This document shows positions 5,570 to 50,676 of a DNA stretch of 64,000 bases, in pieces. Made by a program: the position numbers and the translations under genes. Position 1 is the stretch's first letter. Every line of letters starts with the position of its first letter. Under the pieces are notes generated by a model, which saw nothing but the letters and a program-made list of their open reading frames with translations, had not been told where the DNA came from and did not search any database. Location: positions 496,001 through 560,000 of the forward strand of contig JAWMAR010000711.1 in the NCBI GenBank assembly GCA_036785375.1. The letters are read 5' to 3'. The stretch is from Leucoraja ocellata. Its lineage: Eukaryota.

Positions 5570-6635
5570 GCTCCACGGGCCTGCTCTGCCATCCCATCGG
5601 ATCTTTGGTGATCCAACGTTCCTCAAATCCACTTTCTTGCCCTTTCTCCAAAACCCGTGATTCAGCAATCTCTCTCAGCCTTAAATATATTCAAGGACTT
5701 TGCTCCCTCTGTGGCAAGGAGTTCCAAATACTCTCAGCACTCAAAGGGAAGAAATTATATCTCATCCCCGTCTTAATAACACATTCACTTATTCTGAGTC
5801 CATGGCCTGTGCTTCTGGACTCTGTCACGCGAGGAAACATCATCTCAGCATTTACATATACATAGAAGATACATAGAAAATAGGTGCAGGAGTAGGCCAT
5901 TCGGCCCTTCGAGCTTGCACCGCCATTCAATATGATCATGCATGATCATCCAACTCAGTATCCCATACATGCCTTCTCTCCATACCCCCTGATCCCTTTA
6001 GCCACAAGGGCCACATCTAACTCCCTCTTAAATATAGCCAATGAACTGACCTCAACTACCCTCTGTGGCAGAGAGTTCCAGAGATTCACCACTCTCTGTG
6101 TGAAAAATGTTTTTCTCATCTCGGTCTTAAAGGATTTCCCCCTTATCCTTAAACTGTGAGCCCTTGTCCTGGACTTCCCCAACATCGGGAACAATCTTCC
6201 TGCATCTAGCCTGTCCAATCCCTTAAGCATTTTGTAAGTTTCTATAAGATCCCCCCTCAATCTCCTAAATTCTAGCGCGTATAAGCCGAGTCTATCCAGT
6301 CTTTCTTCATATGAAAGTCCTGACATCCCAGGAATCAGTCTGGTGAACCTTCTCTGCACTCCCTCTATGGCAATAATGTCCTTCCTCAGATTTGGAGACC
6401 AAAATTTCTTTCAGGTTTAACTTTGTAAGAATCTTGCGTTCCAATAAGATTGTCTCTCAATGTTTTCAACTCTAATTAGCTCCAATTTGTAGGACAATCC
6501 CTCCCAATCCAAAGTTATCCAAGTGAAACTTTTCAGAATAGCCTCCAATGGAATAGTATTTTCTTTTAAATGGGGAAACCAAAAATTATGCCAGAACGCC
6601 AGACGTCTCACAAATACCTTGTACAGTTGCACTAA
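5570..6635 (-). mobile_element. Old degenerate CR1 LINE (~5570-5858 and ~6405-6635) interrupted by the younger CR1
   Basis: ORFs 5691..5939 (MFPRVTESRSTGHGLRI...IWNSLPQ) and 6417..6632 (QLYKVFVRR...FWFPHLK) are decayed CR1 ORF2 peptides. Confidence 0.75.
5863..6404 (-). mobile_element. Young CR1 LINE 3' fragment, same subfamily as 7015-8020
   Basis: ORF 5955..6359 is almost identical to the C-terminus of ORF 7147..7917; same 3' UTR and tail. Confidence 0.92.
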
Positions 6636-7014
6636 GGCTCTGCCCTCATTGCTGAATCTGCCGTCTCATTGATAGAAAATGATGTGCTTAACTCTGCTGA
6701 TTACAGTGAAAGATCTCCGTGTGAGATCATCTTTCACTATGTGACAAATCTCGATGTTCATTTCTTTCCAGGGGAGTGACTTCCTGCGAGGAACAATGGA
6801 CCCTCACAGACTTCCTGCCCAAGCAACCTCCCTCCATGCTGCAAAATAATGATTCAATGACTGCCTCAGGAAAGCAGCCAACATAACTAAGGATCACCCA
6901 CGCTCCAGTTATTTCCTCTTCTCTTCTCTCCCATTGTGCAGAAGGTACAGAAACCTGAAAGCGTGCCACCATATTCAAGGACAGCTTCTTCCCTGTTGCC
7001 CTTGAACAGGCGAA

Positions 7015-8020
7015 GCCCAGCTATTTACAATATATATTAATGATCTGGATGAGGGAATTGAAGGCAATATCTCCAAGTTTGCGGATGACACTAAGCTGGG
7101 GGGCAGTGTTAGGTGTGAGGAGGATGCTAGGAGACTGCAAGGTGACTTGGATAGGCTGGGTGAGTGGGCAAATGTTTGGCAGATGCAGTTTAATGTGGAT
7201 AAATGTGAGGTTATCCATTTTGGTGGCAAAAACGGGAAAGCAGATTATTATCTAAACGGTGGCCGATTGGGAAACGGGGAGATGCAGCGAGACCTGGGTG
7301 TCATGGTACACCAGTCATTGAAGGTAGGCATGCAGGTGCAGCAGGCAGTAAAGAAAGCGAATGGCATGTTGGCCTTCATAGCAAGAGGATTTGAGTATAG
7401 GAGCAGGGAGGTTCTACTGCAGTTGTATAGGGTCTTGGTGAGACCACACCTGGAGTATTGCGTGCAGTTTTGGTCTCCAAATCTGAGGAAGGACATTATT
7501 GCCATAGAGGGAGTGCAGAGAAGGTTCACCAGACTGATTCCTGGGATGTCAGGACTGTCTTATGAAGAAAGACTGGATAGACTTGGTTTATACTCTCTAG
7601 AGTTTAGGAGAATGAGAGGGGATCTTATAGAAACTTACAAAATTCTTAAGGGGTTGGACAGGCTAGATGCAGGAAGATTGTTTCCGATGTTGGGGAAGTC
7701 CAGGACAAGGGGTCACAGCTTAAGGATAAGGGGGAAATCCTTTAAAACCGAGATGAGGAGAACTTTTTTCACACAGAGAGTGGTGAATCTCTGGAACTCT
7801 CTGCCACAGAGGGTAGTTGAGGCCAGTTCATTGGCTATATTTAAGAGGGAGTTAGATGTGGCCCTTGTGGCCAAGGGGATCAGAGGGTATGGAGAAAAGG
7901 CAGGTACGGGATACTGAGTTGGATGATCAGCCATGATCATATTAAATGGCGGTGCAGGCTCGAAGGGCCGAATGGCCTACTCCTGCACCTAATTTCTATG
8001 TTTCTATGTTTCTATGTTTC
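7015..8020 (+). mobile_element. Young 5'-truncated CR1-clade LINE (3' end of ORF2 RT plus 3' UTR)
   Basis: Open frame 7015-7917 containing [10 protein letters not shown]...SKFADDTK and LVRPHLEYCVQFWSP; ends in a (TTTCTATG)n tail at 7993-8020. Confidence 0.93.
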
Positions 8021-8342: not shown

Positions 8343-10684
8343 AACATTGAAGATAGCACACTATCTAAGATAGTGTGGTGTGATTGTACGATTCTCCCTG
8401 GCTAGTATTCAAAACAGTTATTTACCGTATCTCATTACATGGCAATGATAAACCTATGAGCAATCGTTCTCATTCAAGATTCCATTGGAGAAGATGTAGA
8501 GATCTGCATCTTTTCAGAAGCTTAAAGAACATCCGAGAGTTTTACAGCCAATGAAATGCTTTTAGGAGTGCATTCCTGGCAAGAAACACAGCTGGGAATT
8601 TGTGTGTAACTGCAGTGGGCAGACAATCTGTTCTGGTGATGCTGGTTGAAGGATCAGTATTGGCTGGGGATAAGTCACCAGATCTTCATCAATATTTTTC
8701 CAATTTACCTGACATGGCAAATCCCATTTCACCTGCAGCATTGAACCTGTGATGATCTTGCGTTCTTTCAGCTATACTCTAGGACAATCGACCTAGACTA
8801 CAATTCTCATGAAATTAGGGTAAAATTGTATTTTAGAATCTTCTGCCTCAGAGGTGAAGGTGTATGGAGGGAAATTAAAATAAAATCAGAAAATGCTGGA
8901 AAAACTTAGAACAGGGAGCATCTGTGGAAAAGAAGTGTTAAAGATTCAGGCCCAGGATCATTGATTGGAGAGAGGCTGCTTCACCTGAATTATTAACCTT
9001 TCCTCTTTGCATAAATATGTAGGAGGAACTGCAGATGCTGGTTTACTCCGAAGATAGACACGAAATGCTGGAGTAACTCAGCAAGATAGACAGCAGGAAT
9101 GGGGGAGGTTTTGGGTTGAGACCCTTCTTCAGTCTGAAGATCCTGAAACATCATCCATTCCTTCTCTCCAGAGATGCTGTCTGACAGGCTGAGTTACTCC
9201 TGTATTTTGTGTCGATGCTCTTTACACAGATGCTGCCTGACCTCTGGAGAGATTCCAGTACTTTCTGATTATATTTGAGGTACCTTGGAAGTGGGGCCAG
9301 GAACTCGTCACAAATCATGGTGCATGGTCATCAGGCTGAAGACATCATCAACAGGGGAGTGAGACTTTGCTACTTCACTTCCCAGCCATGAGGTCCAAGG
9401 AGTTGGGTTAATGGCTTGGAGTGCAGATGGAGTAGGTGTTCCAGGGCTGAGTAAATATCACTCAGCGACTAGACCAAGAACATTGCCTCTATTACAAGAG
9501 TGTTCATGCCCAGAGCTCAACATAAGAACTGAACAATTTTACATACAAACAGTCTGGGGAAGGAATGCATTTTGGTCAGTGATATCATATCTACCAGCAG
9601 TCCAAATTCAGTGGAAGTGAATATGGAACAAGCCTAACAACAGGCAGGAAGTGTAAGTCAAATATCTACCTCACTTCACTTTTTGCAAATGTAAAATTTG
9701 ATTCATATATTTTGTGATTCAATTATAAAGTAATTTACTGATGGTTGTTCTCAATATTATTTATCTTTGCATTCATCTGTGGAAAAATTCAAACCTCCAA
9801 CTGAGAAGAAATAGGTCATTTGTTGTTGCATTTGTAGATTACACTATATTTTACTGTAGTAGAGTTCAACTGTGTTAGTGCACATGAAGGAATACCGAGT
9901 CTGGCTGGCAATTAAAAAGTGATGCGTACCTTCACTAAAGTCATCGGGTATAAAATCCAAGAAAGCTGTAAAAAGGTTACCATTCACCAACAGAAATGTG
10001 ACCCTGCTGAGCATGACAGCTTTCATTCCTATGCAAAAAAGACAAAGTTCTGGAGTTACTCTGCGAGTCAGGCAGCACCTCTGGAGAACATGGACAGGTG
10101 ACATTTCGGGTCGGAGCCCTTCTTCAGAGTGAAGGGTCCTGACCCAAAGCGTCGCTTACCCGTTCTCTAAAGATGCTGCTTATCCCGATGATTACTCCAG
10201 CATTTTGTGTTTTTGCTCAAGATTCCAGCATCTGCCACTCCTTGTGTCCAGCCTCATTCATACTTTGTAACTTGGTAAACTGGGTAGGCTAAATTGTCAT
10301 TCAGGCCAGTTTATGAATACAAATGTGAAATGAGCTGTTTATGGTCTGTGAGTTTGAGAAGTACGGAAGAAACCGTGTAGACAATGCTACTAGATAGATG
10401 TTTAAGATGGTAGATTGTGATATTCAATCAAACTGCATCTTTCTGGATGTTGAGCTTCAGTGTCCTTTGATCTGCACCCATTTAGCAAAATCGCCAATGC
10501 TATATCTTACTCCTATTTTGCTCCTTACAGGCAATGCACCATTTTGGGGGTGTTGGGAAGTAAGTCTTTTACACAAGATTACAAAGTGTCAACCCTGTTT
10601 GTTTCGCCAGAGTGCTTATTGGGTGGCTCCATATAATGAAATGGTGAAATGCAGTCATCAGAACATTGATAATGCTGAAGGTAA

Positions 10685-11700
10685 ACACAGAATTCTGGAT
10701 TAACTCAGCGGGACAGGCAGCATCTCTGGAGAGAAGGAATGGGTGACGTTTCGGGTTGAGACCCTTCTTCAGACTGATGTCAGGGGAGTGGGCGGTACAG
10801 AGATAGAATGTAGTCAGAGACAGTAAGACTGGTGGGAGAACTGGGAAGGGGGATGGGATGGAGAGAGAGGGAAAGCAAGGGCTACTTTTAAGTTAGAGAA
10901 GTTAATATTCATACCTCTGGGGTGTAAGCTACCCAAGCGAAATATGAGGTGCTGTTCCTCCAATTTGCGCTGGGCCTCTCTGACAATGTCAGATTGGGAA
11001 TGGGAGTTGAAGTGTTGAGCAACTGGGACATCAGGTAGGTTAAGGCGGACTGAGCGGCGGTGTTCAGCGAAACGATCGCTGAGCCTGCGCTTGGTCTCGC
11101 CGATATACAGGACACCTGGAACAGCGGATTCAGTAGATGAGGCTGGAAGAGGTGCAAGCCTCACCTGAAAAGTCTGTCGAAGTTCTTGGATGGAGTCGAG
11201 GGAGGTAAAGGGACAGGTGTTGCATCACCTGTGGTTGCAGTAGAAAGTACTTGGGGAGGGGGTGGTTTGGGTGGGAAGGGCCGAGTTGATCAGGGAATTG
11301 CGGAGGGAACAGTCTGCAAAAAGCAGAAGGGGTGAAGATGGTAAGATGTGGCCAGTAGTGAGATCCCGTTGGAGATGGAAAAAATGTTGTAAGATTATAT
11401 GCTGTATTCGATGGCTGATGGGGTGGAAGGCGAGGACAAGGGGGACTCTGTCTTTGTTACGAATGGGGGGGAAGCATGAGCGGAGCTGCAGGATATCGAG
11501 ATCTTAGTTAGAGCCTCATCTATAATGGAAGAGGGGAACCCCCGTTTGTTGAAGAATGAGGATGACCTGGTATGGAAAACCCTCATCCTGGGCACAGATG
11601 CAGCGTAGACGGAGGAATTGGAAGCAGAGTATAGTCTTTACTGGAAGCAGGGTGGGAAGAAGTGTAGTCTAGATAGCTATGGGAGTCAGTGGGTTTGTAA
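10685..11700 (-). mobile_element. Penelope-like retroelement fragment with GIY-YIG endonuclease remnant and terminal repeat
   Basis: ORF 10814..11164 LYIGETKRRLSDRFAEH...PVAQHFN...RKLEEQHLIFRLGSLHPRGMN is typical of the PLE GIY-YIG C-terminus. Confidence 0.85.
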
Positions 11701-13369: not shown

Positions 13370-13917
13370 GTGGAGATAGTGTCCCACTTGCCTGCGCTTG
13401 GTCCATATCCCTCCAAACCTGTCCTATCCATGTACCTGTTTAACTGTTTCTTAAACAATGAGATACTCAGCTTCAACTAACTCCTCTGGCAACTTGTTCA
13501 CACACCTTTTGTGTGAAAAAGTTACCCCTCAGATTCCTTTTAAATCTTTTTCCCCCTCACCTTGAGCCTATGTCCTCTGGTACTCGATTCCACTACTCTG
13601 GGCAAGAGACTCTGTGCATCTACCAGATCTATTCCTCTCATGATTTTGGACACCTGTATAAGATCAGCCCTCACCCTCCTGCACTCCATGGAATAGAGAC
13701 CCAGCCAACTCAACCTCTCCCTATAGCTCACACCCTCTAGTCCTGGCAACATCATCGTAAATCTTTTCTGAACCCTTTCAAGCTTAACAATATATTTCCT
13801 ATAACATAGTGCCCAGAACTGAACACAATATTCTAGATGCGGTCTCACCAATGTCTAATACAACTGCAACATGACCTCCCAACTTCTTTACTCAATATTC
13901 TGACTGATGAAGGCCAA
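13370..13917 (-). mobile_element. CR1 LINE 3' fragment (different subfamily)
   Basis: ORF 13540..13851 LVRPHLEYCVQFW...RTRGH-like motif. Confidence 0.85.
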
Positions 13918-19777: not shown

Positions 19778-21791
19778 TTATACATTTGACTCTACGAATG
19801 GTCTCTTTGGTTTTAAAGGTGATGTTGGCCCTTGTCGTGAGTCTCTGGAAAGCTGCCGATATATGCTGTCCTGATATGCCTGTGCAACAGGCAGCGTTCT
19901 GGCCACTTTTACATCTGGATACGAGGGAGTTTGACTAACTCTCTCCAAAATCTCTCCCCGGGATCCATTGGTCAGCTTCCCATGTGGGATACACATGTCC
20001 TCCTCAAGCAGGTGACCATTTTGGGCATTGTTAGTCTTATTGAAAAAAGCAATATTACTAACTGGGGGTGGGCTGTAGGAGGCGGATTGAGGGGACATTC
20101 CTCCAGAGGAGGTGGGGCTGGTGATGACAGTGTCGACAGAGGACACAGCCCACGTTCGGCTCTGCTGGTGCATGTGGGTGTATTGCTGTGTCCGAGCTGT
20201 TTTATCTATGATCCCCATGAAAGGTGTGGTCCTTGAACGACCAGAGTCTCCAGGGTAGCCCTGTGTTGGAGAGATGGGAGACTGTTCTTCATTGGATCGG
20301 CTTTCATAGGAGGGTTTTATTGGAATCTCCATCTGTTGGATGGAAGCAGAAGGTCGAAATGATGACACAACATTAGAGCTCGAAGAAAGGCTATTGTTAG
20401 AGGGGGAGAAACGAAGGCCAGTGCTTTGGGAATGGAGCAGTGGTCGGGGAGTTGGTGGGTGAGGTTTGATCTCTGGAGGATTCACGGTGAGTGCCCTCCT
20501 GATCATGTGAGATACATCTGGAGATGAAATCTGGCTAGATGGAACAGAAGATCTTTCCAATTCATGCTTGGAATGGGATACAGGATAATATGATGCAGAC
20601 TGACTGCGACCAATCTGAGGGGTCTGGCCATACCTCACTCCTCCTCGAAAGGCTGAAGAAGGTCGTTGACTGTGATCCTCTTTGGTCATCACTGATCCAG
20701 GATGTTGACAAACATTGCTGATTGCACCTGCACTCAGACTGGCCTGCACATGCTGGACGGGTCTGCTGTCAGCTACCACTCCACCCATTACAGGCTGATA
20801 TACCAGGCGACTTTGAGTAGGAGCCATATCAACTGAAGACTGATGTTTGGTACTCATGGAGTGAGGTCCCTGGTTATAGGATCCACCAAGTATAACAACA
20901 CTAGAGTGGACCGCAGAGCTGGGCTGATTGGTGCGAACAATTTGAGCTTTGGCTGGTTGTAACCTAAGCCCTTGTTGGGGTAGACCGGATGGAGGTTGAG
21001 ATAATTGATAGGGTCTTTGGGCCATTTTAGACAAAGGAGACTTTGGCCTACCAGGAAGCTGGCCTATTGAGGTTTCTTGCTGATATCGGACTGGGGAGCC
21101 AGACTGAGACCTATATACACTCATACTATCTGCAGGAGGACTAGCTCTGTACTGCGGGGCCCTACGCAGTGGAGAAGGTGGGGGACTTGACTGGTAATCT
21201 TTGTTTGGGCCACTTACAGGAGGCGGGCTAAAGCGGTACGAAGAGCCCTGATGAGCAGGGGAGGTGGTCGGAGGGCTAGGCCGATAATGAGAATTCTGGT
21301 GGGTAGGAGAAATTGATGGCGATGTGGATTGGTACCCCTGCCGAGTGGGGGAGGAGATGGAAGGGTTTGGTCTGTAGTCAAAAACCTGGTGGGAGTTGAG
21401 AGGCGAGCTGGATCTGTAGGTGGGTTCACGGTGGGCCGGGGAAGGTGGTGGACTATGGATAACAGGCAGCCCTTGGCTAGGTCTTGTTTCATTCTGTAAG
21501 CCAACGGAGACATTGTCCAACTCCTGCTCCAAATATTCCTCATCATAAATTTCATGCATTGAGTCTAAGTCTTCTTGCTGAGTCTGTTGCTGTTGTTGCT
21601 GTGACTGCTGCTGCTGCTGCTGTTGTTGTTGTTGTTGTTGCTGTTGTTGTGGTTGTCCATATTGTAACGGCTGGCCGTATTGCAACTGCTTGAATTCCTC
21701 TTCTACCCGTATCAACAAGCGTTGTATCTCACGGTTATTCGGGCAAAGCTTCACAGCCTCATGCAAATCTTCCAGGGCTGCTGGAAACTGC
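19778..21791 (-). CDS. TANC2: TANC2 terminal coding exon: end of TPR, coiled coil/polyQ, S/P-rich tail, C-terminal PDZ-binding motif ESNV
   Basis: 662-aa ORF 19778..21766 extended to acceptor ccatgcag|G CAG TTT (phase 2); TAA stop at 19778-19780; the ending [10 protein letters not shown] is TANC2-type rather than TANC1-type. Confidence 0.96.
21575..21649 (-). repeat. Coding CAA/CAG repeat: Q15-S-Q6-T-Q2
   Basis: Read directly; the Q15 run is CAA2 CAG CAA6 CAG6 (21605-21649). Confidence 0.95.
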
Positions 21792-24700
21792 CTGCATGGA
21801 AGAATATTGTGTGTAAGATAAATATGTTCTTACTTGAGATACATCATCCATCACTTACTAAATGTTATCTTCAATAAATTTTGGGACGTTGCCCACGATG
21901 AAAAATGAACTCAATTTCCCTAGTCTCCAAATTATTTGCTTATCCACATTATGGAGAAGATACTATTATCATAGACTTCAAAGTTTTCTCATCCCTGTTT
22001 ATTTGAGGCTAGTTTTATTCTGCTCTGCATTCAAGTCTTTTCAAATTTTCATGATTACATCTGTGATCACAAATTAAATCAGTTAAATTTTGTTGGGGCT
22101 TGTCATATTTCCATGATTTCCTGAAGGGCTTCATGGCCAATGAATTATATAATATGTGTAGCTGGAAGTATAATTTGGGGAAATGCGATAGTCAATTTGC
22201 ATTCAACAAAGTCCCATAAACAGCAATTAGATAACCTAATTGAGCATGTTGATTGATGAATTGAGCTCGGAGACAGAGAGAGGCTGTGTTCTTTTTCAAA
22301 CAGTGCCAGTTTTGTGGTTCATCTGAAAGTGCACAATGCAGCTGGTCAATGTTATGTGTACAAGTATCTGAACAGAGATTTTAACTCATTTTAAAAACAC
22401 AATCGAAGGGCCGAATGGCCTCCTCCTGCACCTATTTTCTATGTTTCTAATTAGATAGGTACGTGGATAGGACAGGTTTGGAGGAATATGGACTAAGGGA
22501 AGGCAAGTGGGACTAGTGTAGCTGGGACATTGTTGGTCGGTGTAGGCAAGTTGGGCCAAAAGACCTGTGTCCAAATTGTATCACTCTACGACTCTAATCT
22601 GTGGGCGGGAATCGTTGGTCGGTGCAGACTCGATGGGCCGAAGCGCCTGTTTCTGTGCTGTGTCTTTAAACTAAACTAAGCTAAACTCAGGCTTTTTAAT
22701 TCGGATGTGAGTGTGCACCATCTAAATCCAGTTGGGTATAGATATAAACCAGTACTCAACACATACACTATGCCTTTCAGCACATGCATAGAGTTGAAAT
22801 AGTTTAAAGTATTATTCTCAACTACATTCACAAGCTAATTGCCACCAACAGGTTCCTGCAGGTATGCTTTCATTCTTGGTCAACTAAGCAAACTAACATC
22901 AAATACAAAACATGGAATGAACAATACATTACATTGCAAAATTAACACATCATTCATAATAACCTTTCATAAGGGTAGAATGCATCCGGCATCCTATCAG
23001 TGTTGTCCTACTTACAGGACTAACATTCAAAGATCAGTTCCAGTGTGATAAAAATATAAAAGGTGAATTCATTATAGGGTTTTGACAGGTTTCTTAGGCA
23101 AATAAATGAGTAAGGATGTTTTAATATGAAATTAGAACCTTACTGAAACAAGTCGCAAACAGGCACATCCATTATTAATTCAGCAGAGAAATAGTCAATA
23201 ACATCTTAAAAGAAGATGCTTCTGAGGTGAAATAATCAATATCTCAAGCTACTGGGTCAAAATAATAATGCCTGCTTTAAGTGTTCTGTCCTATGAACAA
23301 ATTTGTAAAAAATCCAGTCTTCTATATGCTGTGCTAACTCCAGTTTATCCAGGCAGGGTATTCAAGTAAGGAAGTTACACTCCTTCATCCAAACTGTAAC
23401 GCGTGACTTATTAATGGATTTTATTCCTAAAGAAAACAAATAGTTTCATGCAATAAAAAGAGCATTTATTCCAATAATGCAAGGGGTATTGATCCTTGCA
23501 AGAAAAGCAATGAAGGTGACGGATGACACTCTGATACCCTGACATATTTGATTCCATAACATAGCTTGGCAGAAAAATGAACGGCTGCACTAACCTACAA
23601 CCAGAAGGATCCAGCATTTTTCATTTATATTGCGAGTGAGATAGAATTAATAATACACACACACACACATCCATACATCCAGCAAACTTTGCAGAGATCT
23701 TGTTTAAAGAGCAATTACATGGATGGTATCCAGGAGAACAAGTTTGTTGCCATTTCTCACGAATGGAATGCCAATTAAGTAGGTCAGCACTTGTAAAATC
23801 CATGCCATTAAATGGGATCCTCAATATTGGATGAAAATGCCTCAGAAAATTAGAATTTTAGTTTCATTTTTATGAGGAGATAGCCATCATTGAAAAGGGG
23901 AGTATTTATACCACATCTATGACTATCCCCAAGTTCCCTTGAGGTGACTGCAAGTGTAGTTTGTTTTATGAAGATGTTCCAATTAGACTATTTTTGTGGA
24001 GAATTTCATGGTTTTTACACAACTTTGATGAAAGAATGTGTGATTTAATGCCAGGATAGGATTGTGTGAAAAGTAATTTGTAGGCAATGATGCACACACA
24101 TTTCTGCTCCCTTATGCTTTTGATGGGCTTTTAGGGGTGATCAAAAAAGCATTGGTCAGTTGCAGAACAAATTCTTGTACATGATACATACTGAAGCCAT
24201 GGGTGCCAGTGATTATGTGAACTCTTACTCTCTGTATAGGGCAAGGTTTCCTGCGTGTTCCTGAATCTGCACTCAGCCAGTAAATTAATAGTATTCCATT
24301 CCACTCCTGCTGTGTGGTGGGAACACTTTAGTAAGTGAAGTCACACCCCGTGGGATATCCAACCTTTAACCTACTCTGGTTTGTCTGGTCAAAGGTTACC
24401 ATCATCATGGTGAAATATCTAGTTGGTAATTATATTATAAAGTCATAGTAATACAGCACAGAGGCCTTTCAGCCTTACCCATCCATGGCGACCAAGGTAC
24501 TCCTTCTAAGATAGTCACATTTACCCCCAAAAGCCTTTTGAAGCACAGACCATTGATTGAAAGTAGCTTTAGCTGTGCTTTATCTAATTATTCCAACCAT
24601 GATGAGGGAGACTGACAGTTATGCTCTCAAAATACTTTAATCTTCACTATGATTCAATAATTTGTAATATCCTTTCTCTCAATCGTAAACTCTGAATCAA

Positions 24701-28271: not shown

Positions 28272-29243
28272 CCAGAGCACTGCAGTGATGCAGCTGATAG
28301 TGCCGCTGCCTCATAACACCAAGACAATAACACATAGACTAAGGTTCGATCCTGACCTCGGGTGCTGTTTATGTGAGGTTTGCTAGTTCTCCCTGTGACT
28401 GGATGGGTTTCCTCCGCCTGCTCTGGTTTCCTGCCACATCCCTAAGATGTGCGGGTTTGGACTTTAATTGGCCTCTAGAAATTGCCCCGAGTATGTTCGG
28501 AATGAACGAGAAAGTGGAATAACGTAGAACTAAGTGACGGATGATCAATAGTCGGAGATGGACACAAAAGCTGGTGTGACTCAGCGGGACAGGCAGCATC
28601 TCTGGAGAGAAGGAATGGACGACGTTTCGGGTCGAGACCCTGCTTCAGACTGATATCAGGGGAGGGGGTGGGACAAAGATAGAATGTAGTCGGAGACATT
28701 AAGACACGAGGGAGAACTGGGAAGCGGAAAGAGGATAGAGAGAGAAAGCAAGGGCTATCTGAAGTTAGAGAAGTCAATGTTTCTACCACTGGGGTGTAAA
28801 CTACCCAAGCGAAATATGAGGTGCTGTTCCTCTAATTTGCGCTGGGCCTCACTCTGGCAATGGAGGAGGCCCAGGACAGAAAGGTCAGATTGGGAATGGG
28901 AGCGCGAGTTGAAGTGCTGAGCCACTGGGAGATCAGATAGATTAGGACGGACTGAGCAGAGGTGTTCAGTGAAACATTTCAGACCGTTCCGTATCAGAAA
29001 GGGGGAGATCAGGGGGGATGGTGAACACAAGGCAAGGGTGGGGGTTGGGATTGGAGGAAGGCAATGAGTAGATGGAGGCCGAGGCGATGTCTGGTGGGTG
29101 TTCAGAGAGGAGGGGGGGCATGAGAACTATTGGATGGGTGGGGAGTAGCTGGGGTCACCTGGCTAAAAGGGGAAGGGGTCAATAGTCGGCTTAGACTCGA
29201 TGGGCCAAAAGGCCTGTTTCCGTGCTGTATCTAAAACAAAACT
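28272..29243 (+). mobile_element. tRNA-derived SINE split by a Penelope insertion (28272-28555 and 29179-29243)
   Basis: B-box 'ggttcgatcc' at ~28343, V-like core; the tail resumes after the insert. Confidence 0.75.
28556..29178 (-). mobile_element. Penelope-like element fragment inserted in a SINE
   Basis: ORF 28755..29030 (PVAQHFNS...RKLEEQHLIFRLGSLHP) matches the 10.8 kb copy; flanked by direct repeat TCAATAGTCGG. Confidence 0.85.
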
Positions 29244-30048: not shown

Positions 30049-30342
<294 letters not shown>

Positions 30343-36623: not shown

Positions 36624-36791
<168 letters not shown>

Positions 36792-39680
36792 CTATAGGCG
36801 AATGAAGGTAGAGAACAACTTTCCATGTTTAGATATTGTGCCATATGACTATCATTTAAAATAGCGTCAATCTCAATTGTCAGGGTATCCAGCTAATTAT
36901 ATATAGTAGCTTATTAAGAGTAAACTTCCTAAAATTTATTTAAAATTGAATTGGAGCAATTATTGGTGGTGAATTTGATTTTGATGCTTCTATGTGCCTC
37001 AGTGTTAGTAAATCACTTATTTCATAATATGTCAGAATTATTATACGTAATAATTGTAATTTTATGAATTAAGTGATTATGGAGATGTGGAGATGGTATA
37101 TTAAACTAAAAAAAAATGTAATTTAGTCACAATCACAGCTAAGCCTCATCCTGTCATATACAGCTCGGGTATGAAGGTTCAGACAATATACAAGATCATT
37201 CTTTAGAGTGGCATCTTAACGATGTTTGTATCACCTCAGCCTTCTGTGCAACCTAGAATGGTGCAAGTGTTTTAAAGCCTGAAAGCTTTAGGTTAATTTA
37301 ATATGAACTCCATTTGGTTTAGTACTGTGAAACTATGTTAATTAAAAATGGAAATAGATATTTTGGGTATAAGTTTAACTGAAAGCAATTTGATATTCAG
37401 CACAAAGAGATCACCTGTTGCCTGTTCGGCAGTTCAGAGAAATAAGAAGGTAGAGCTCTAACTCAATTTGGCATTCACCTGAGTTTAAGTGGCTTATTTG
37501 TTGACACTCTTTCCGAAATTTCTTTATGTACATTGTGTTACTTACATCAATGGATTAAAAGCTTGTCAAAATGACAGGCATACAAATTATCAACAAGAAC
37601 AACTCAACTAAAAGTCTAACCCAGTGAGACTTGAATCTTAACTGGGAACATTTGAATTACTCATGGCAAGTTTATTCCAAAGAAGACAACTGCGGGAATA
37701 TTTGATGTGACCGAACAATAATTTATGTCCAGCAGTAAAATAAAAAGAGGCAGTAATATAATTAAAAATAATTAAATGGGTGATTGCTCGGTGCTGAAGA
37801 GGAAAATTGAGCATAAATACATGGCAGTAGGACGAGGATGACTGTGGCATTTGTTAGGCCAGATTGATTTTTCAATCACAATTTAGGTGCAGAATGAGAT
37901 ATGATCATAATTCCATTTATTAATATAGGACCAGGAAGCAGCCAGATGTAAGCATGGCAATAGATTCAATTGAAGGGCAGGGCGCAAGGGAGGTAAGCAG
38001 GAGCAAAGCGCCCCACCCAATGAAATGTAAAACAATTCTATGGACATTTGTCCTATAATGTTAAGGTGTACCATCTAAAAGCCAGTAAATTAAAAATGCA
38101 CACCCTCTTGAGGCACTGATATAGATAGAATTTGCTGCAATTTCCATGACAACTGTGTATGTGAACATACTCCAAGGATGTTACTTGTAAGGTTTGCTAG
38201 AAAGTGTAAGGGGGAGCCTTGCTGAAAGTTCAAAACATTCACCATCTCTATAGCAAAAGAGAAACGATTGACACATTGAAAGCAGCTCTTGCAGAATGCT
38301 GCACTATAGTGAGGGGGAGAAATGGCAGCACTGCAAAGTAGAACTCTCCAATTTCAGCAATGCTGTATTAATATGTAGCTTTAATGTTTGTTTTGGTAAC
38401 AATGCTGTGTTAATGTAGTTGAATGGGATTTTTAATTCTTTATATGAAACACCATCGGGTGTAAGAAAAACTGCATGTGACTTCTTACTATTGTTTTTAC
38501 ATTTATAAATCATGTCCACATGATTAAATTTATTAAAAATGGACATGTTCGCAAACACATTGCTGATTTGGGTTTAAAGACAGTAAAAAAAAAACTACTT
38601 AGTGAGAGGTGATGGAGAAAATGATGGTGATTATTTTCTCCCCAGAAACAATGACATCAATTTTGAATTTGACAAACACATCATCATGGTAATTTATTTC
38701 ACTGACGTTTTAAATGTTGGAAACAACAGCCTCACTACTCTTCTTACAAGGACTATCAATGAATCAGTCACACGCAAATGCCTCTGTAAAGGTTTGCGTT
38801 TGAGATCCTTGTTCTTTTATGTGACAAATTTGAAAGGGATTGTGTTATGTCACTTGAGGAGGTTCTTGAAACAGAAACAAATCTCAAGGATTTGAATCAG
38901 TGGCTCTTCAGCCACACGACAGCTTCTGACATGGTCATCAGCAATACTGCATACATTAAGTCAGAAACTGAGTACTTCAGATATCTAGCTCTCTGCCTCT
39001 AATCTCTGGAGGCAGACTGACAGGGAAATGTTTTGACGTCATAGCTCTCAAAATTCCATGTTGATATTCTGAGATTTGAATTAATTTAGAAATGTTACAT
39101 GGCAGATATTTTATATTCAAAAACCTTCTTCAAAATTGTGCAGAAACAGTCTGACAGGTTGAGATATTCTGGTATGAAACCATCAAATAGAATTGGAAGA
39201 AGTGAGAAACAGGAAAAGGAAGGGGTTACTGGATTTTCAGTGGTTTTATTTGCAGGGAGGCAGCTACTGCAATTTATTAAAAATAAAAGCAAAGAACATA
39301 TCCTTAACACCGACCAATGAACTTCACATCCAATAGATTATTCCTGGAGCACTGCTATAAATGTAATATCATTAATTTGGTGACCGATTGCAGATAATTA
39401 ACATTTGATCCAATTAATTGGGGCAGAAAATAACATGATAATCATGGCATCAATAGTGGTTAAAAGGGACTAGGTATATCCATATTGTCCCCTTTCCATC
39501 TGATCCAAAAGATATATCACTGAATCACAATTTAGTGTTACTGTTTACCAAATAAGTTGTCCTCTACAACAATCCTATTGGTTGCTTTCATCAGGGGTAA
39601 AGAAAGAAAAGCACATGAATCTTTCATGCTGTCCAGAATGAACTGGATGGGGGCAAACAAAAACAAATCAAATCGTGTAC

Positions 39681-39710
39681 CTCGAGGACGACTTGGGAGT
39701 GTTTGGCAAC
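39681..39710 (-). CDS. TANC2: TANC2 30-nt frame-preserving microexon (GCQTLPSRPR) between the ankyrin and TPR regions, probably alternative
   Basis: Minus strand reads cactgacaag|GTTGCCAAACACTCCCAAGTCGTCCTCGAG|gtacac; symmetric phase 1/1 matches both flanking exons; long polypyrimidine tract; peptide matches the 10-aa insert I recall in a mammalian TANC2 isoform (from memory). Confidence 0.85.
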
Positions 39711-42700
39711 CTTGTCAGTGATGAAGGAAAGAGAAAGAGGGAAGGGAAGGGATTTTCAAAAGACATGAGGATGAAGAACAGAAAAGAAAAAAAATTGCAG
39801 TGAGCAAGCAGCAAAGCCAGTGCATCAGCAAATCATTGCACAAAAACACAGCACACAAGAGGAACTGTGTGAAGCCAAGCATACACATAACTGTCTGAAG
39901 CACACGCACAGAAAGCTGCCTATAGCATACGGTAACATCAGAAGCATTAGTTCCAAAGCTGGAAGATTTATTTGATTTGGGGACCCGACTCTCAAAATAT
40001 TCAAAGAAAAATACGGGTCCTAGCTTTTTCTAATGTTTCTGCACAAAATATATGTACAGATGTAAAAGGCAACATAAATCATTGCACTAATTGGCTACAT
40101 CAAAGAATGCGGTGTTATCATCTGCATGATTGAGATCTGAGGTCCCCACTCAAACTTAAAACCAGCAGCAATGCTGTTGACTTTCTCTGACCCCACATCC
40201 ACTTCTATTTTTGGGTTGTACATCAGAACCACTTCATAATAAATATCTATCATGATTTTAAAATGGTTTTGAAAATGTTACATAATGACAGTGAGATCAG
40301 ACTATCTCTTCTGAATATCATATTCAAGGCAGTAGCATTGAAGTATACAAGAACACGTAGAAATTAAAGAGAAGTGTATATTAACAGAAGAAACCCTGAT
40401 ATAGATTAAAAACTTGATGGTTAGATACACAACCAATCCAAAAGTATTGCATTCAATGGTAATATTCCATTGGTTAACATCAATAACAAAAACAACCAAA
40501 AATACATATTTTCCACATCTGTATGACTGGAACAAAGTATTGCTCATGTCTACACCATTCCTACCAAATAACAAACAGCAGACAAGTAACCAAATTGATT
40601 AACTCAAAAGTGTTCATTTCCAAATATATTTCCCAAGTGATAATGACTTTTCAGGCTTAAGTGCGAAACAAAAGGATTCTCTGTAATTTTCAGTGTGGAG
40701 GGCTCTTTATAACTTCCCTGTTGTAGAAAAAAAGATTGGAATAACACAAGCTCTTGTTAGCTTCAAGAAATATATCCATGTTCTCCTTTTGTCCTTCTGG
40801 TGGCCAAAGCAAGTTTAATTAATAATATATCCCAGGATGAAAATGTTGGTCATCAGCCAATTTACCAAGTTTCTGAACATCTTTGAGCAATTAATAAAGA
40901 AAACAACAAATTGTGTCTCAATTTTCAAGAGATTTTTTGCGAAATTCCAACATCAATGAAACACTGTTAATATAAAGTTTCACTGAGGAACAAATGTATT
41001 ACACTAACTACAAGAGAAAAAATAATAATGTGACATGAAAGCTTTCATGACAATTACATTTAATCATATCGTTAACTGGTTATTTAACAGATTTGGATGA
41101 AATACCAAGGTTCTGATGCTTTCTACTATAAAGGCATTATGGTGGTCATTAAAGTCTTTCAGAGACTACATCATCACAATTAATGCTAAAGATATCCGGG
41201 GCCTGCTTTGTTGGTGATCCTACAAAATATTGAGCTGTAAAAAGAGCAAAAACCTACATTCATTAACCTGGAGACTTTCTGATATTATAATAGCCGAACC
41301 AAAAAAAACATCCAACTAAGAAGAAATTTACATTAATTAACATTTGATACGAAACATCTGTTCATATAACCAAAAATGTTTGCAAACCAGAAAACACTTC
41401 AAAAATAATCTTTTGTAACAACACTGTTTAAATGTGCACTGAATTTGCTGCATCTTATAAATATATAAATCTGGTATATCATTTGAAATGCTGGATTGAT
41501 ACAATTCAATAACAAAGACTTAGTGGGGGGGTTTTTGCCACTAATCATACACAAAGCTTGAATCCATACATACGTATGGCCAAGAACTGTACATCATTTT
41601 GATCCATAACAGTAACCAATCAGGTAAAAGAATATGGGAACATATATTCAAAGACATATCCCACATGATGACCATTCTATTATGTACACTGAATGTGTTT
41701 GTCTGCTATCATTGCAGCCCCTTTTGGAACAGAACAGCAGTATGCAGAATCAAAGCTCCATCAATTCATCTATGACATTGTATTTCCATTTCTGTAGTCA
41801 CTATGTGATTGTGAAGCATTCAATTATGTGTCAGTGCCATGTCTAAAATCTGTCTTATTATTTATACGTCTAACATCCGGCCACTGAAGAGGCAACATAT
41901 ACATTGAAATGTTTCATTAACAGACAGGTAATGAACATTAATGTATTCTTAAAATATGATCTCATAAGAGCTGCTAATGTCTTTAACTTCCATATATGCC
42001 AATGGTTTGGGCAGAGGATCTGCTTCCTAATGATGTAATATTTACATCAGCAAATAAAAAGGGGAAAACAAATCAAAGGTTTACTTTCCATTTTTAATAC
42101 TATATTTAATATTAATCTAACCAACAATGTTGGTACACTGTTTGATTTTCAAGAACATTTAGTAACCAAATACTGTAACTGTATTGTGTTGTTAAGTATT
42201 ATAGTTGGGCTGAATATAATAAGTGGAAAACTTCATGAATTAGCAACAGGTAATTCATCAAACAAGATATTGCAGCATAAGAAATGTGATTAAACATAAT
42301 CAGAAATGAAGGACAAAAGATTTCCAAAGCTGTATTTGGCAGTACGTGATTTAAATGTCTTTGATTTGAAGCAAATTTTTAAACTTTCTTTCAATACATG
42401 AACTTTTAGACAAGATCAATTCATGATAACCACAACCTGTGTAATTCTCATCCAACATGCCAAAGCATTTTATTATTTCCAATGCATTCTCAATATCTTC
42501 CATTTCCTGTTAAGGAAAGTAACTGCACTGTTAAGTTCTATTTTGTAATTATTTTTCCGAGAGAATATATATATTGTTTTGTTTTAGAATTGATGCATCT
42601 AATACTATGTTATTCCCTCTACTCTCTTGCAATCCATCATCTTGTGTTTCCATCATGATCCAAACATCTGCCTGCAATTAGTTTTTGTTAGAAAATAAGG

Positions 42701-47645: not shown

Positions 47646-47816
<171 letters not shown>

Positions 47817-48317: not shown

Positions 48318-49745
48318 ACATGGAAAAATGGGTGCAGGAGTAGGCCATTCGGCCCTTCGAGCCAGCACCGCCATTCAACATGATCATGGCTGATCATCCA
48401 AAATCAGTACCCCGTTCCTGCGTTTTCCCCATATACCTTGACTCCTTTAACCCTAAGAGCTAAATCTAACTCTCTTTTGAAAATATCCAGTGAGTTGGCC
48501 ACCACTATCTTCTGTGGCAGAGAATTCCACAGATTTACAACTCTCTGAGTGAAGACGTTTTTCCTCGTCTCAGTCCTAAATGGCCTACCCCTTATTCTTA
48601 AACTGTGACCCTTGGTTCTGGACTTCCCCAACATCAGGAACATTTTTCCTGCATCTAGCCTGTCCAATCCTTTAAGAATTTTATGTTTCTATGAGATCCC
48701 TTCTCATCCTTCTAAATTCCAGTGAATACAAGCCCAGTCGACCCATTCTTTCATCATATATCAGTCCCGCCATCCCGGGAATTAATCTGGTGAACCTAAG
48801 CTGCACACCCTCAATAGCATTAATGGCCTTCCTCAAATTAGGAGACCAAAATTGCACACAATACTCCAGGTGTGGGCTCACCGGGGCCTTGTGCAGCTGC
48901 AGTAGGACCTCCATGTTCCTAAACTCAAATCCTCTTGCAATGAAGGCCAATATGCCATTAGTGTTCTTCACTGCCTGCAGTACCTGCATGCTTAGTTTCA
49001 GTGACTGATGTACAAGCACACCCAGGTCTCGTTGCACCTCCCCTTTTCCTAATCTGACACCATTCAGATAATAATCTGCCTTTCTGTTCTTGCCACCAAA
49101 GTGGATAACCTCATATTTATTCACATTCTACTGCATCTGCCATGTATCTGCCCACTCACCCAACCTATTCAAGTCACCCTGCAGCCTCATAGCATTGTTT
49201 CTGGATCTAGATTTTGTCTAAATCGTTAATATATATTGTAAATAACTGGGGTCCCAGCACCGAGCCTTGTGACACCCCACTAGTCACTGCCTGCCATTCT
49301 GAAAAGGACCCGTTAATTCCTACTCTTTGCTTCCTTTCTGCCAACCAGTTCTCTATCCATGCCAATACCCTACCCCCAATACCATGTGTTCTAATTTTGC
49401 ACACTAATCTCTTGTGTGGGACCTTGTCAAAGGCTTTTTGAAAGCTCAGATACACCATATCCACTGGCCCTCTGTTGCATCCTCAAAATATTTCAGAAAA
49501 TTAGTCAAGCATGATTTCCCCTTCATAAATCCATGCTGACTTTGACTGATCCTGTCACTGCTTTCCAAATGCGGTGCTATAACATCTTTAACAATCGACT
49601 CAAGCATCTTCCCCACTATCGATGTCAGGTTAACTGGTCTATAATTCCACGTTTTCTCTCTCCCTCCTTTCTTAAAAAGTGGGGTTACATTGGCTACCCT
49701 CCAGTCCACAGCAACTGATCCAGAGTCGAGAGAACATTGGAAAAC
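48318..49745 (-). mobile_element. CR1 LINE, ~1.4 kb RT fragment with frameshifts and an internal deletion near 49200
   Basis: Consecutive ORFs: [58 protein letters not shown]; the FADD segment is missing. Confidence 0.92.
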
Positions 49746-50676
49746 TACAGATACCGGAATCTTGACCAAAACACAAAGTGCTGGAGTAGCTCAGCAGGTC
49801 AGGCAGCATTTGTGGAGGGAATAAACAAGGTGACGTTTTGGGTGATGATCCTTCTTAAGACTATTTGGTCAGGACCTTCTTTGGACCCATCCTCAAGAGT
49901 CCAAAGAAAGGTCCCGACCCAAAACAGTGCCTACCCATTCCCTCCACAGTTACTGCCTGATCTGCTCAGCTACTCCAGCACTCTGCTTTTGCTCAACATT
50001 TAAAATACATTTGGATTGGCACATGTATGGAAAATATTTAGAGGGACATGGGTCAAATGGGACCAACGTAGATCTTGGCATCTTGGTTGACATGGACGAG
50101 TTGGGCTGAAGGCCTATTTCTACATTGTATGATTATGTGACTTCATGACCTATCTAATCAATGCATGCTAACAACTGAATGAAGATGACATTGCCATTCC
50201 CACTGGATTTGCCCTGACCTTCTCTACTGATTCCATCTGCCAGGTCCCAACCTTTTAGTCTTTTTGCAGACTCTTTCTCCTGGTTGACGTGCATTATGCA
50301 GACGTCCTCCCTGCCTCTAACACTCCACATAGACCCTTCCTTTCCTATTCCTAATGCCTTGTTTATCAGACCATAGCCCTCTCCCTTATTTCTTTCTTAG
50401 AATTCATTGTGGGGATAGACTATTGGACATTATTGTCAGCACTGCACTGTAATGATGATCAAGGTATATAACACTAAAACTAAAGACCATAGGTTTCAGA
50501 TAAGGGGCAAGCGATTATAAGGGATCTGCGAATGAACCTATTCACACAGAGGATGTTTGTAATCTGGAAAGCACTACTCGAGTGGATGGTGGAGTTACAT
50601 TCTCTCACAACATTTAAGAAATACTTAGATGGACACTTGAATTGGCAAGATATAGAGGGCTACAGACCCAAATCGC

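Follow-up and report, generated by a model that had tools for sequence, protein, structure and literature searches.

Within the window, that is, the whole stretch of 64,000 nucleotides of the Leucoraja ocellata genome analyzed here, we find an intact cassette exon of 30 nt in TANC2, which codes for a synaptic scaffold, and this exon is quite probably used part-time: its inclusion is likely highest in the developing brain, with repression by MBNL in the mature brain, and its product is predicted to be a flexible loop. For the fish exon, the anatomy, the orthology and the protein-level constraint are established, whereas partial inclusion, a perinatal peak in the cortex and a rise upon MBNL loss are published for mammals only. 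The exon, its flanking exons and the signals around it are as follows.

47681..47813, minus strand: upstream TANC2 exon, 133 nt, encoding the last ankyrin repeat and ending ...KGAKI + G
39713..39864, minus strand: AG exclusion zone of 152 nt, the second longest gap among the 560 AGs of the interval
39803..39813, minus strand: YGCY three times in tandem, containing YGCYGCY; predicted candidate MBNL site, adjoining the branch-point candidate
39800..39804, minus strand: CTCAC, predicted distal branch-point candidate, with its A at -91
39722..39794, minus strand: pyrimidine tract of 73 nt, 86% C/T
39711..39713, minus strand: acceptor AAG, non-YAG (the three other mapped acceptors are CAG)
39681..39710, minus strand: TANC2 cassette exon, 30 nt, in-frame, encoding GCQTLPSRPR; orthologue of human exon 22a and mouse exon 23a by anatomy, annotated isoforms and published event
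39675..39680, minus strand: donor GTACAC
36630..36721, minus strand: downstream TANC2 exon, 92 nt, encoding the capping helix and first TPR helix

The exon and its locus

A sequence-only reading of the window had described a symmetric, stop-free 30-nt exon with a non-YAG acceptor and a weak donor, lying in an interval of about 11 kb, and each of its anatomical claims could be verified in the sequence: the exon has AG and GT at its ends, phase 1/1, no stop, the acceptor AAG and the donor GAG|gtacac. The flanking exons (47681 to 36721) are separated by 10,959 nt, leaving introns of 7,970 and 2,959 nt on either side of the exon, and both forms are open, with the frame kept, as had been claimed, by skipping (GAKI-GPATW) as well as by inclusion (GAKI-GCQTLPSRPR-GPATW). 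The claim of a weak donor holds only in part: the sequence is as described, but by a crude count it matches CAG|GTAAGT at 5 of 9 positions, compared with 5 for the downstream exon and 6 for the upstream exon, and by that count is not unusually weak. Given that the interval contains 329 frame-keeping, stop-free AG..GT candidates of 3-51 nt, symmetry and the lack of a stop, taken alone, are at chance level. The exon rises above chance because the pyrimidine tract at its acceptor ranks first among the 329 candidates (score 0.89), because of the long AG-free zone, and because its peptide is exactly identical to that of annotated isoforms.

Indeed, the fish exon is an event already described and annotated in human and mouse, where it is known as exon 22a and exon 23a, respectively ('TANC2 miE' in the files covered of PMC12148930). 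It shares with them the gene, the junction, the length of 30 nt, the flanking exons of 133 and 92 nt and 10 of 10 residues; it differs from the human exon in its introns, which measure about 550 and 830 nt around the human exon, and from the mouse exon by 8 silent base differences. That the exon is real and orthologous to the mammalian one is, in our view, practically certain.

Another contig carries a second copy of the exon, most simply explained as the other allele: the 161-nt exon region is identical in both, 3,161 nt contain 6 differences, and over 10 kb the two copies agree at 99.5%. The TANC2 region (G000:C9:10265700-10277124, against the window's contig C711) and TANC1 (C35 and C2680) both occur in two copies that are about 99.2-99.8% identical, and the contig of the window is probably that of a duplicate allele. 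Several further features of the gene were observed. If an alternative donor located 21 nt beyond the first TPR exon (30115-30135, minus strand) were used, VCPMASL would be added, seven residues that are identical in the catshark isoform P0129 and appear in no other protein collected. A Gln-rich tract, which follows the TPR domain, opens the last TANC2 coding exon (19781-21829, minus strand, about 670 aa). In several species, TANC2 models are short, at about 1350-1410 aa (P0128, which is XP_038634797.1, P0122, P0123, P0137 and P0141), and of these the two that were read to their ends break off before or within the TPR domain, which hints at C-terminally truncated isoforms. Repeat-like open frames lie in the introns and downstream of the gene (at about 5960-7900, 13540-13850, 48400-49800, 10570-11640 and 28480-29130); they resemble pieces of a LINE reverse transcriptase and a further repeated element.

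Control of inclusion

The behavior of the mammalian exon is documented chiefly in PMC12148930, of which supplementary files 1-13, 15, 16 and 19 were searched. There, the event is listed in human (chr17:63412679-63412709) and in mouse with exons of 133, 30 and 92 nt, with a dPSI of +0.265 in DM1 cortex and of +0.434 in Mbnl cDKO cortex; that a positive sign means more inclusion upon MBNL loss was read from the DMD exon, which is negative in the same table. In the same source, PSI in mouse cortex from E14.5 to 21 months runs 0.30, 0.35, 0.64, 0.61, 0.59, 0.29, 0.25, 0.19 and 0.23, peaking at P0 (0.64) and lying at 0.19-0.25 from P30 onward, and Mbnl climbs about 5-fold over the series. The embryonic Mbnl single-knockout lists among these files contain TANC2 rows, the 30-nt event not being one of them. 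Other sources, as far as their available text goes, are consistent: exon 22a (30 nt), assayed with primers in both flanking exons, showed 40-60% inclusion in fetal brain and is named an MBNL2 target (PMC7224547); Tanc2 exon 23a is called a documented MBNL2 target with reference to Charizanis 2012 (PMC11967847); the preprint PMC10462192 agrees with PMC12148930 on the exon; and Tanc2 mis-splicing is listed in the review PMC6050950. The exon is mis-spliced in myotonic dystrophy and, according to the parts of this literature covered, serves as a published marker of that disease. Other Tanc2 exons are the subject of PMC10048575, and the available text of PMC13681504 does not allow the exon to be identified. 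The mammalian data point to developmental timing by MBNL, and not to a neural on/off switch.

In the skate, the sequence upstream of the exon is compatible with such control. The candidate CTCAC was chosen among 7 YTNAY matches within 200 nt because it sits directly before the pyrimidine tract, and the candidate MBNL site adjoins it. The string YGCYGCYYGCY occurs once on the window's minus strand, although this pattern was picked after being noticed. Using the YGCY definition of PMC12148930 (as given in its available part), we counted 9 motifs in the 250 nt upstream of the exon versus 3 downstream, and 0.7% of 250-nt segments attain 9; since 8 motif classes were scanned, this enrichment is post hoc. 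Another TANC2 exon has 6 YGCY in 200 nt compared with 7 at the 30-nt exon, its boundary being approximate, and within 150 nt upstream of the exon neither RBFOX (TGCATG) nor QKI motifs are enriched. MBNL bound within about 300 nt upstream is reported to inhibit inclusion in the portion covered of PMC12148930, and a YGCY cluster of the kind expected for MBNL-repressed exons does lie within this distance here, at modest and post hoc enrichment.

We suggest that a short exon with an AAG acceptor would depend on the distal branch point (about -91) and on the long pyrimidine tract. MBNL on the YGCY cluster (-103..-93) would cover this branch point and hinder its recognition, and skipping would follow as MBNL levels rise in mature tissue. 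From the YGCY cluster beside the branch-point candidate, together with MBNL repression of the mammalian exon, we infer MBNL repression in the fish, and consider its conservation rather likely on these grounds. MBNL cannot account for the embryonic rise of inclusion. A search of sequencing runs for the last TANC2 exon listed 21 runs, 20 of which contained part of the exon and none of which was recorded as RNA.

The sequence-only reading had proposed a neural splicing switch, which as stated is at best partially correct: in mammals the exon has a perinatal peak followed by MBNL repression, and MicroExonator assigns it to 'Other' with no brain-versus-control call, so that the exon is better described as one of partial inclusion that is likely timed by MBNL. 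The main competitor of MBNL timing is a classical neuron-specific switch by SRRM3/4 (nSR100), with the exon included in neurons and skipped elsewhere, which we regard as unlikely, and which may also act alongside MBNL repression. SRRM3/4 microexons and the TANC2 exon are alike in being short, frame-keeping and conserved from shark to mammals, with a distal branch point and a long tract; indeed, the accessible part of bioRxiv 2024.09.17.613571 describes a distal branch point, a long tract and a weak 3' splice site as typical target architecture, and the skate exon shares all three, its branch point being predicted. They are unlike in that the TANC2 exon measures 30 nt, lacks a proximal UGC and has a perinatal peak, versus a switch-on in mature neurons. 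With 30 nt, it falls outside the 3-27 nt SRRM3/4 class and is a microexon only under the definitions of at most 30 nt (PMC7821500) or 3-33 nt (PMC12148930), as found in the parts of these sources covered. The 22 nt that precede the exon contain no UGC, the closest one being at -89 rather than within 2-20 nt; however, a nearby UGC is absent in about a quarter of SRRM3/4 targets, and the same preprint, in its accessible part, does not treat the motif as strictly required.

Expression data likewise speak on both sides. In the covered files of PMC12148930, inclusion in mouse cortex doubles from E14.5 to P0, as a neural switch would have it, but the adult cortex reaches a PSI of only about 0.2. In the supplementary data available from MicroExonator (mouse embryo; PMC7821500), the exon's PC1 loading of 0.032 is at the neuronal cut-off of 0.03 that was set for clusters, but the exon is 'Annotated', belongs to the cluster 'Other', and has no differential call for midbrain/hindbrain/neural tube, forebrain, muscle, heart or adrenal. 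In zebrafish, 30-nt exons of tanc1a/b are neural (dPSI +86 and +58) and srrm3/4-dependent (-30 and -21) in the tables covered of PMC12626424, but these neural-exon tables contain no tanc2 row, and neither do the files of PMC12148930 that we took, from their numbering, to be Srrm3/4 knockdown lists contain one for TANC2; absence from such lists is weak evidence in both cases. No tanc1/2 row was present in 12 of the 13 supplements of PMC12626420.

Orthologues and constraint

The window exons match named TANC2 proteins, and a separate locus in the same genome matches TANC1. The last TANC2 exon is best matched by proteins named TANC2 from cartilaginous fishes (89% and 86%), and next by those of amphibians, coelacanth and mammals. 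Among 120 homologues of this exon, GCQTLPSRPR is present at the junction in 57, all mammals, and absent in 62, the upstream exon being missing in the remaining one; none of the 11 non-mammalian homologues among these 120 has the insert, nor do the TANC2 records of coelacanth (5), caecilian and Callorhinchus that were examined. A search centered on the insert returned the identical peptide in 92 of 92 new proteins, including human Q9HCD6-2, a list that was selected for the insert and is not to be read as a frequency. The peptide is found in the curated isoform 2 of human and mouse (Q9HCD6-2 and A2A690-2) and, among RefSeq models, in those of dozens of mammals; the available part of PMC5533708 describes Q9HCD6-2 by an insertion at 1225, I>IGCQTLPSRPR. 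That a 10-aa insert separates human TANC2 isoforms, as the sequence-only reading had it, was thereby verified. Of 20 further cluster members, only the catshark TANC2 isoform X13 (XP_038634797.1) carries the insert; this predicted model ends at 1353 aa, before the TPR domain, and the catshark annotation includes TANC2 forms with and without the insert. The peptide is thus identical in human, mouse and catshark records when aligned, and it is shared by the window exon, the catshark model and the mammalian isoforms, in agreement with the proposed conservation from cartilaginous fish to mammals. The exon had also been called hidden and likely to be missed by annotation. This does not apply to mammals, where curated UniProt isoforms, RefSeq and a published marker include it, and applies partly to cartilaginous fish, in which 13 of the 14 other elasmobranch records listed are without it.

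Comparing by eye the mouse exon (from a supplement row of PMC7821500) with the window exon, we found that 8 of 30 bases differ, all silently. When 8 random substitutions were drawn under two models, all were silent in 1 and 3 of 400,000 trials. As silent-only differences are this improbable by random substitution, the peptide is under protein-level constraint.

We find it very improbable that the orthologous exon is seldom used in this lineage, or that its inclusion is tied to truncated transcripts. Among the other elasmobranch TANC2 records listed, only 1 of 14 has the insert, and this sole carrier is the one that ends before the TPR domain; however, only 15 of the cluster's 122 members are listed, and at sites of this kind gene models often all follow one isoform. 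Moreover, all 10 residues are retained, the changes relative to mouse being silent, the splice sites, the tract and the AG-free zone are intact, and the two genomic copies are identical across the exon and its flanks. That the exon is an AG..GT stretch arising by chance in a long intron, for which only the 329 frame-keeping candidates speak, is as good as ruled out by the exactly identical peptide in annotated vertebrate isoforms, curated ones included, and in the mouse exon, by a chance expectation of 1.4e-8 for the insert's last 9 residues in this intron, and by the equivalent TANC1 intron of the same genome, a control without comparable match.

The predicted loop in TANC2 and the insert in TANC1

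By domain match and AlphaFold, the insert lies between the last full ankyrin repeat and the TPR domain, which bears out the proposed location at the ankyrin-TPR junction. The mouse region was modeled by AlphaFold in both forms, with the insert and without it, from 53-row alignments; read by helices and confidence rather than by coordinates, the models contain the same helices (mean pLDDT 93.9 and 95.7; pTM 0.87 and 0.88, respectively). Across the insert, pLDDT is 79 and 59 in models with it, versus 97 and 95 without it. In these models, the insert lengthens the loop that leads from the ankyrin helix at 123-131 to the short capping helix preceding the first TPR helix. The ankyrin-cap-TPR helices would stay in place, and neither the fold nor the C-terminal PDZ ligand would be altered. 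The models suggest that the insert likely forms an exposed, flexible, Pro/Arg-rich loop that would tune partner binding at the ankyrin/TPR boundary. It contains a PxxP core, which presumably resembles an SH3 ligand.

We also considered whether the insert restores a canonical ankyrin finger, as suggested by the repeat spacing (35 with the insert and 25 without, 33 being canonical) and by the Pfam Ank_2 score (299 versus 274 bits, with and without the insert). This was rejected: the loop is of low confidence in AlphaFold, and the short junction is the family default, being present in 44 of 47 family proteins (picked from 150 matches for spanning the junction). The insert was found in none of 20 readable lamprey TANC records, which may be skip isoforms. 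No solved TANC structure appeared among the 60 best of 239 sequence matches or in ranks 1-50 of at least 500 fold matches; these lists are crowded by generic ankyrins and therefore are no evidence that such a structure is absent. The literature searched yielded no functional experiment on the insert.

In bony fishes, TANC1 carries a different 10-aa insert of the GYRTSPYDRS type at the same junction (P0238, P0500, P0509, P0524 and relatives), which was first noticed in one TANC family match. Among the 120 best matches to the TANC1 insert protein, the junction is 10 or 12 residues longer in 116, and 4 could not be parsed. The carriers comprise teleosts, gar, bichir and coelacanth, and each of the 7 clusters examined contains forms with and without the insert. 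Zebrafish has 30-nt neural exons in tanc1a and in its second copy (VastDB ids DreEX0077219 and DreEX0008656) for which the tables covered of PMC12626424 list no human orthologous event; given their length and gene, these exons would encode the GYRTSPYDRS-type insert. The skate's own TANC1 intron (G000:C35:5912336-5917840, 5,505 nt, no N) has no matching exon in either copy: of its 175 candidates, 9 are of 30 nt and none is similar, with best scores of 18-20 in the two copies versus a self-score of 50.

The TANC1 and TANC2 inserts have the same junction and length, occur in isoforms with and without them, and share G1, T4 and P6, but are otherwise dissimilar. The zebrafish tanc1 exons are strongly neural and srrm3/4-dependent, whereas the TANC2 exon is under apparently different control. 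From the sequences, a common origin of both inserts is plausible. Tentatively, and at less than even probability, a single ancestral microexon may have predated the TANC1/TANC2 duplication in early jawed vertebrates, the same loop then coming under an SRRM3/4 switch in TANC1 and an MBNL timer in TANC2. The TANC1 exon would have been kept in ray-finned fish and coelacanth and lost in skate and, apparently, in mammals, and the TANC2 insert would have stayed unchanged in all 10 residues between cartilaginous fish and human. If true, the MBNL target network that is mis-spliced in the myotonic-dystrophy brain would be as old as jawed vertebrates.

The exon itself was already known, being present in curated isoforms and, in the literature covered, a published marker of MBNL loss in brain. 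What the skate adds is, first, that the exon is intact in a cartilaginous fish and has changed only silently, an argument for the importance of the ten residues; second, a candidate MBNL site kept beside the branch-point candidate, in other words a natural minigene on the age of the regulation; and third, a paralogue, TANC1, with an exon of the same length at the same junction in bony fishes, apparently under different control.
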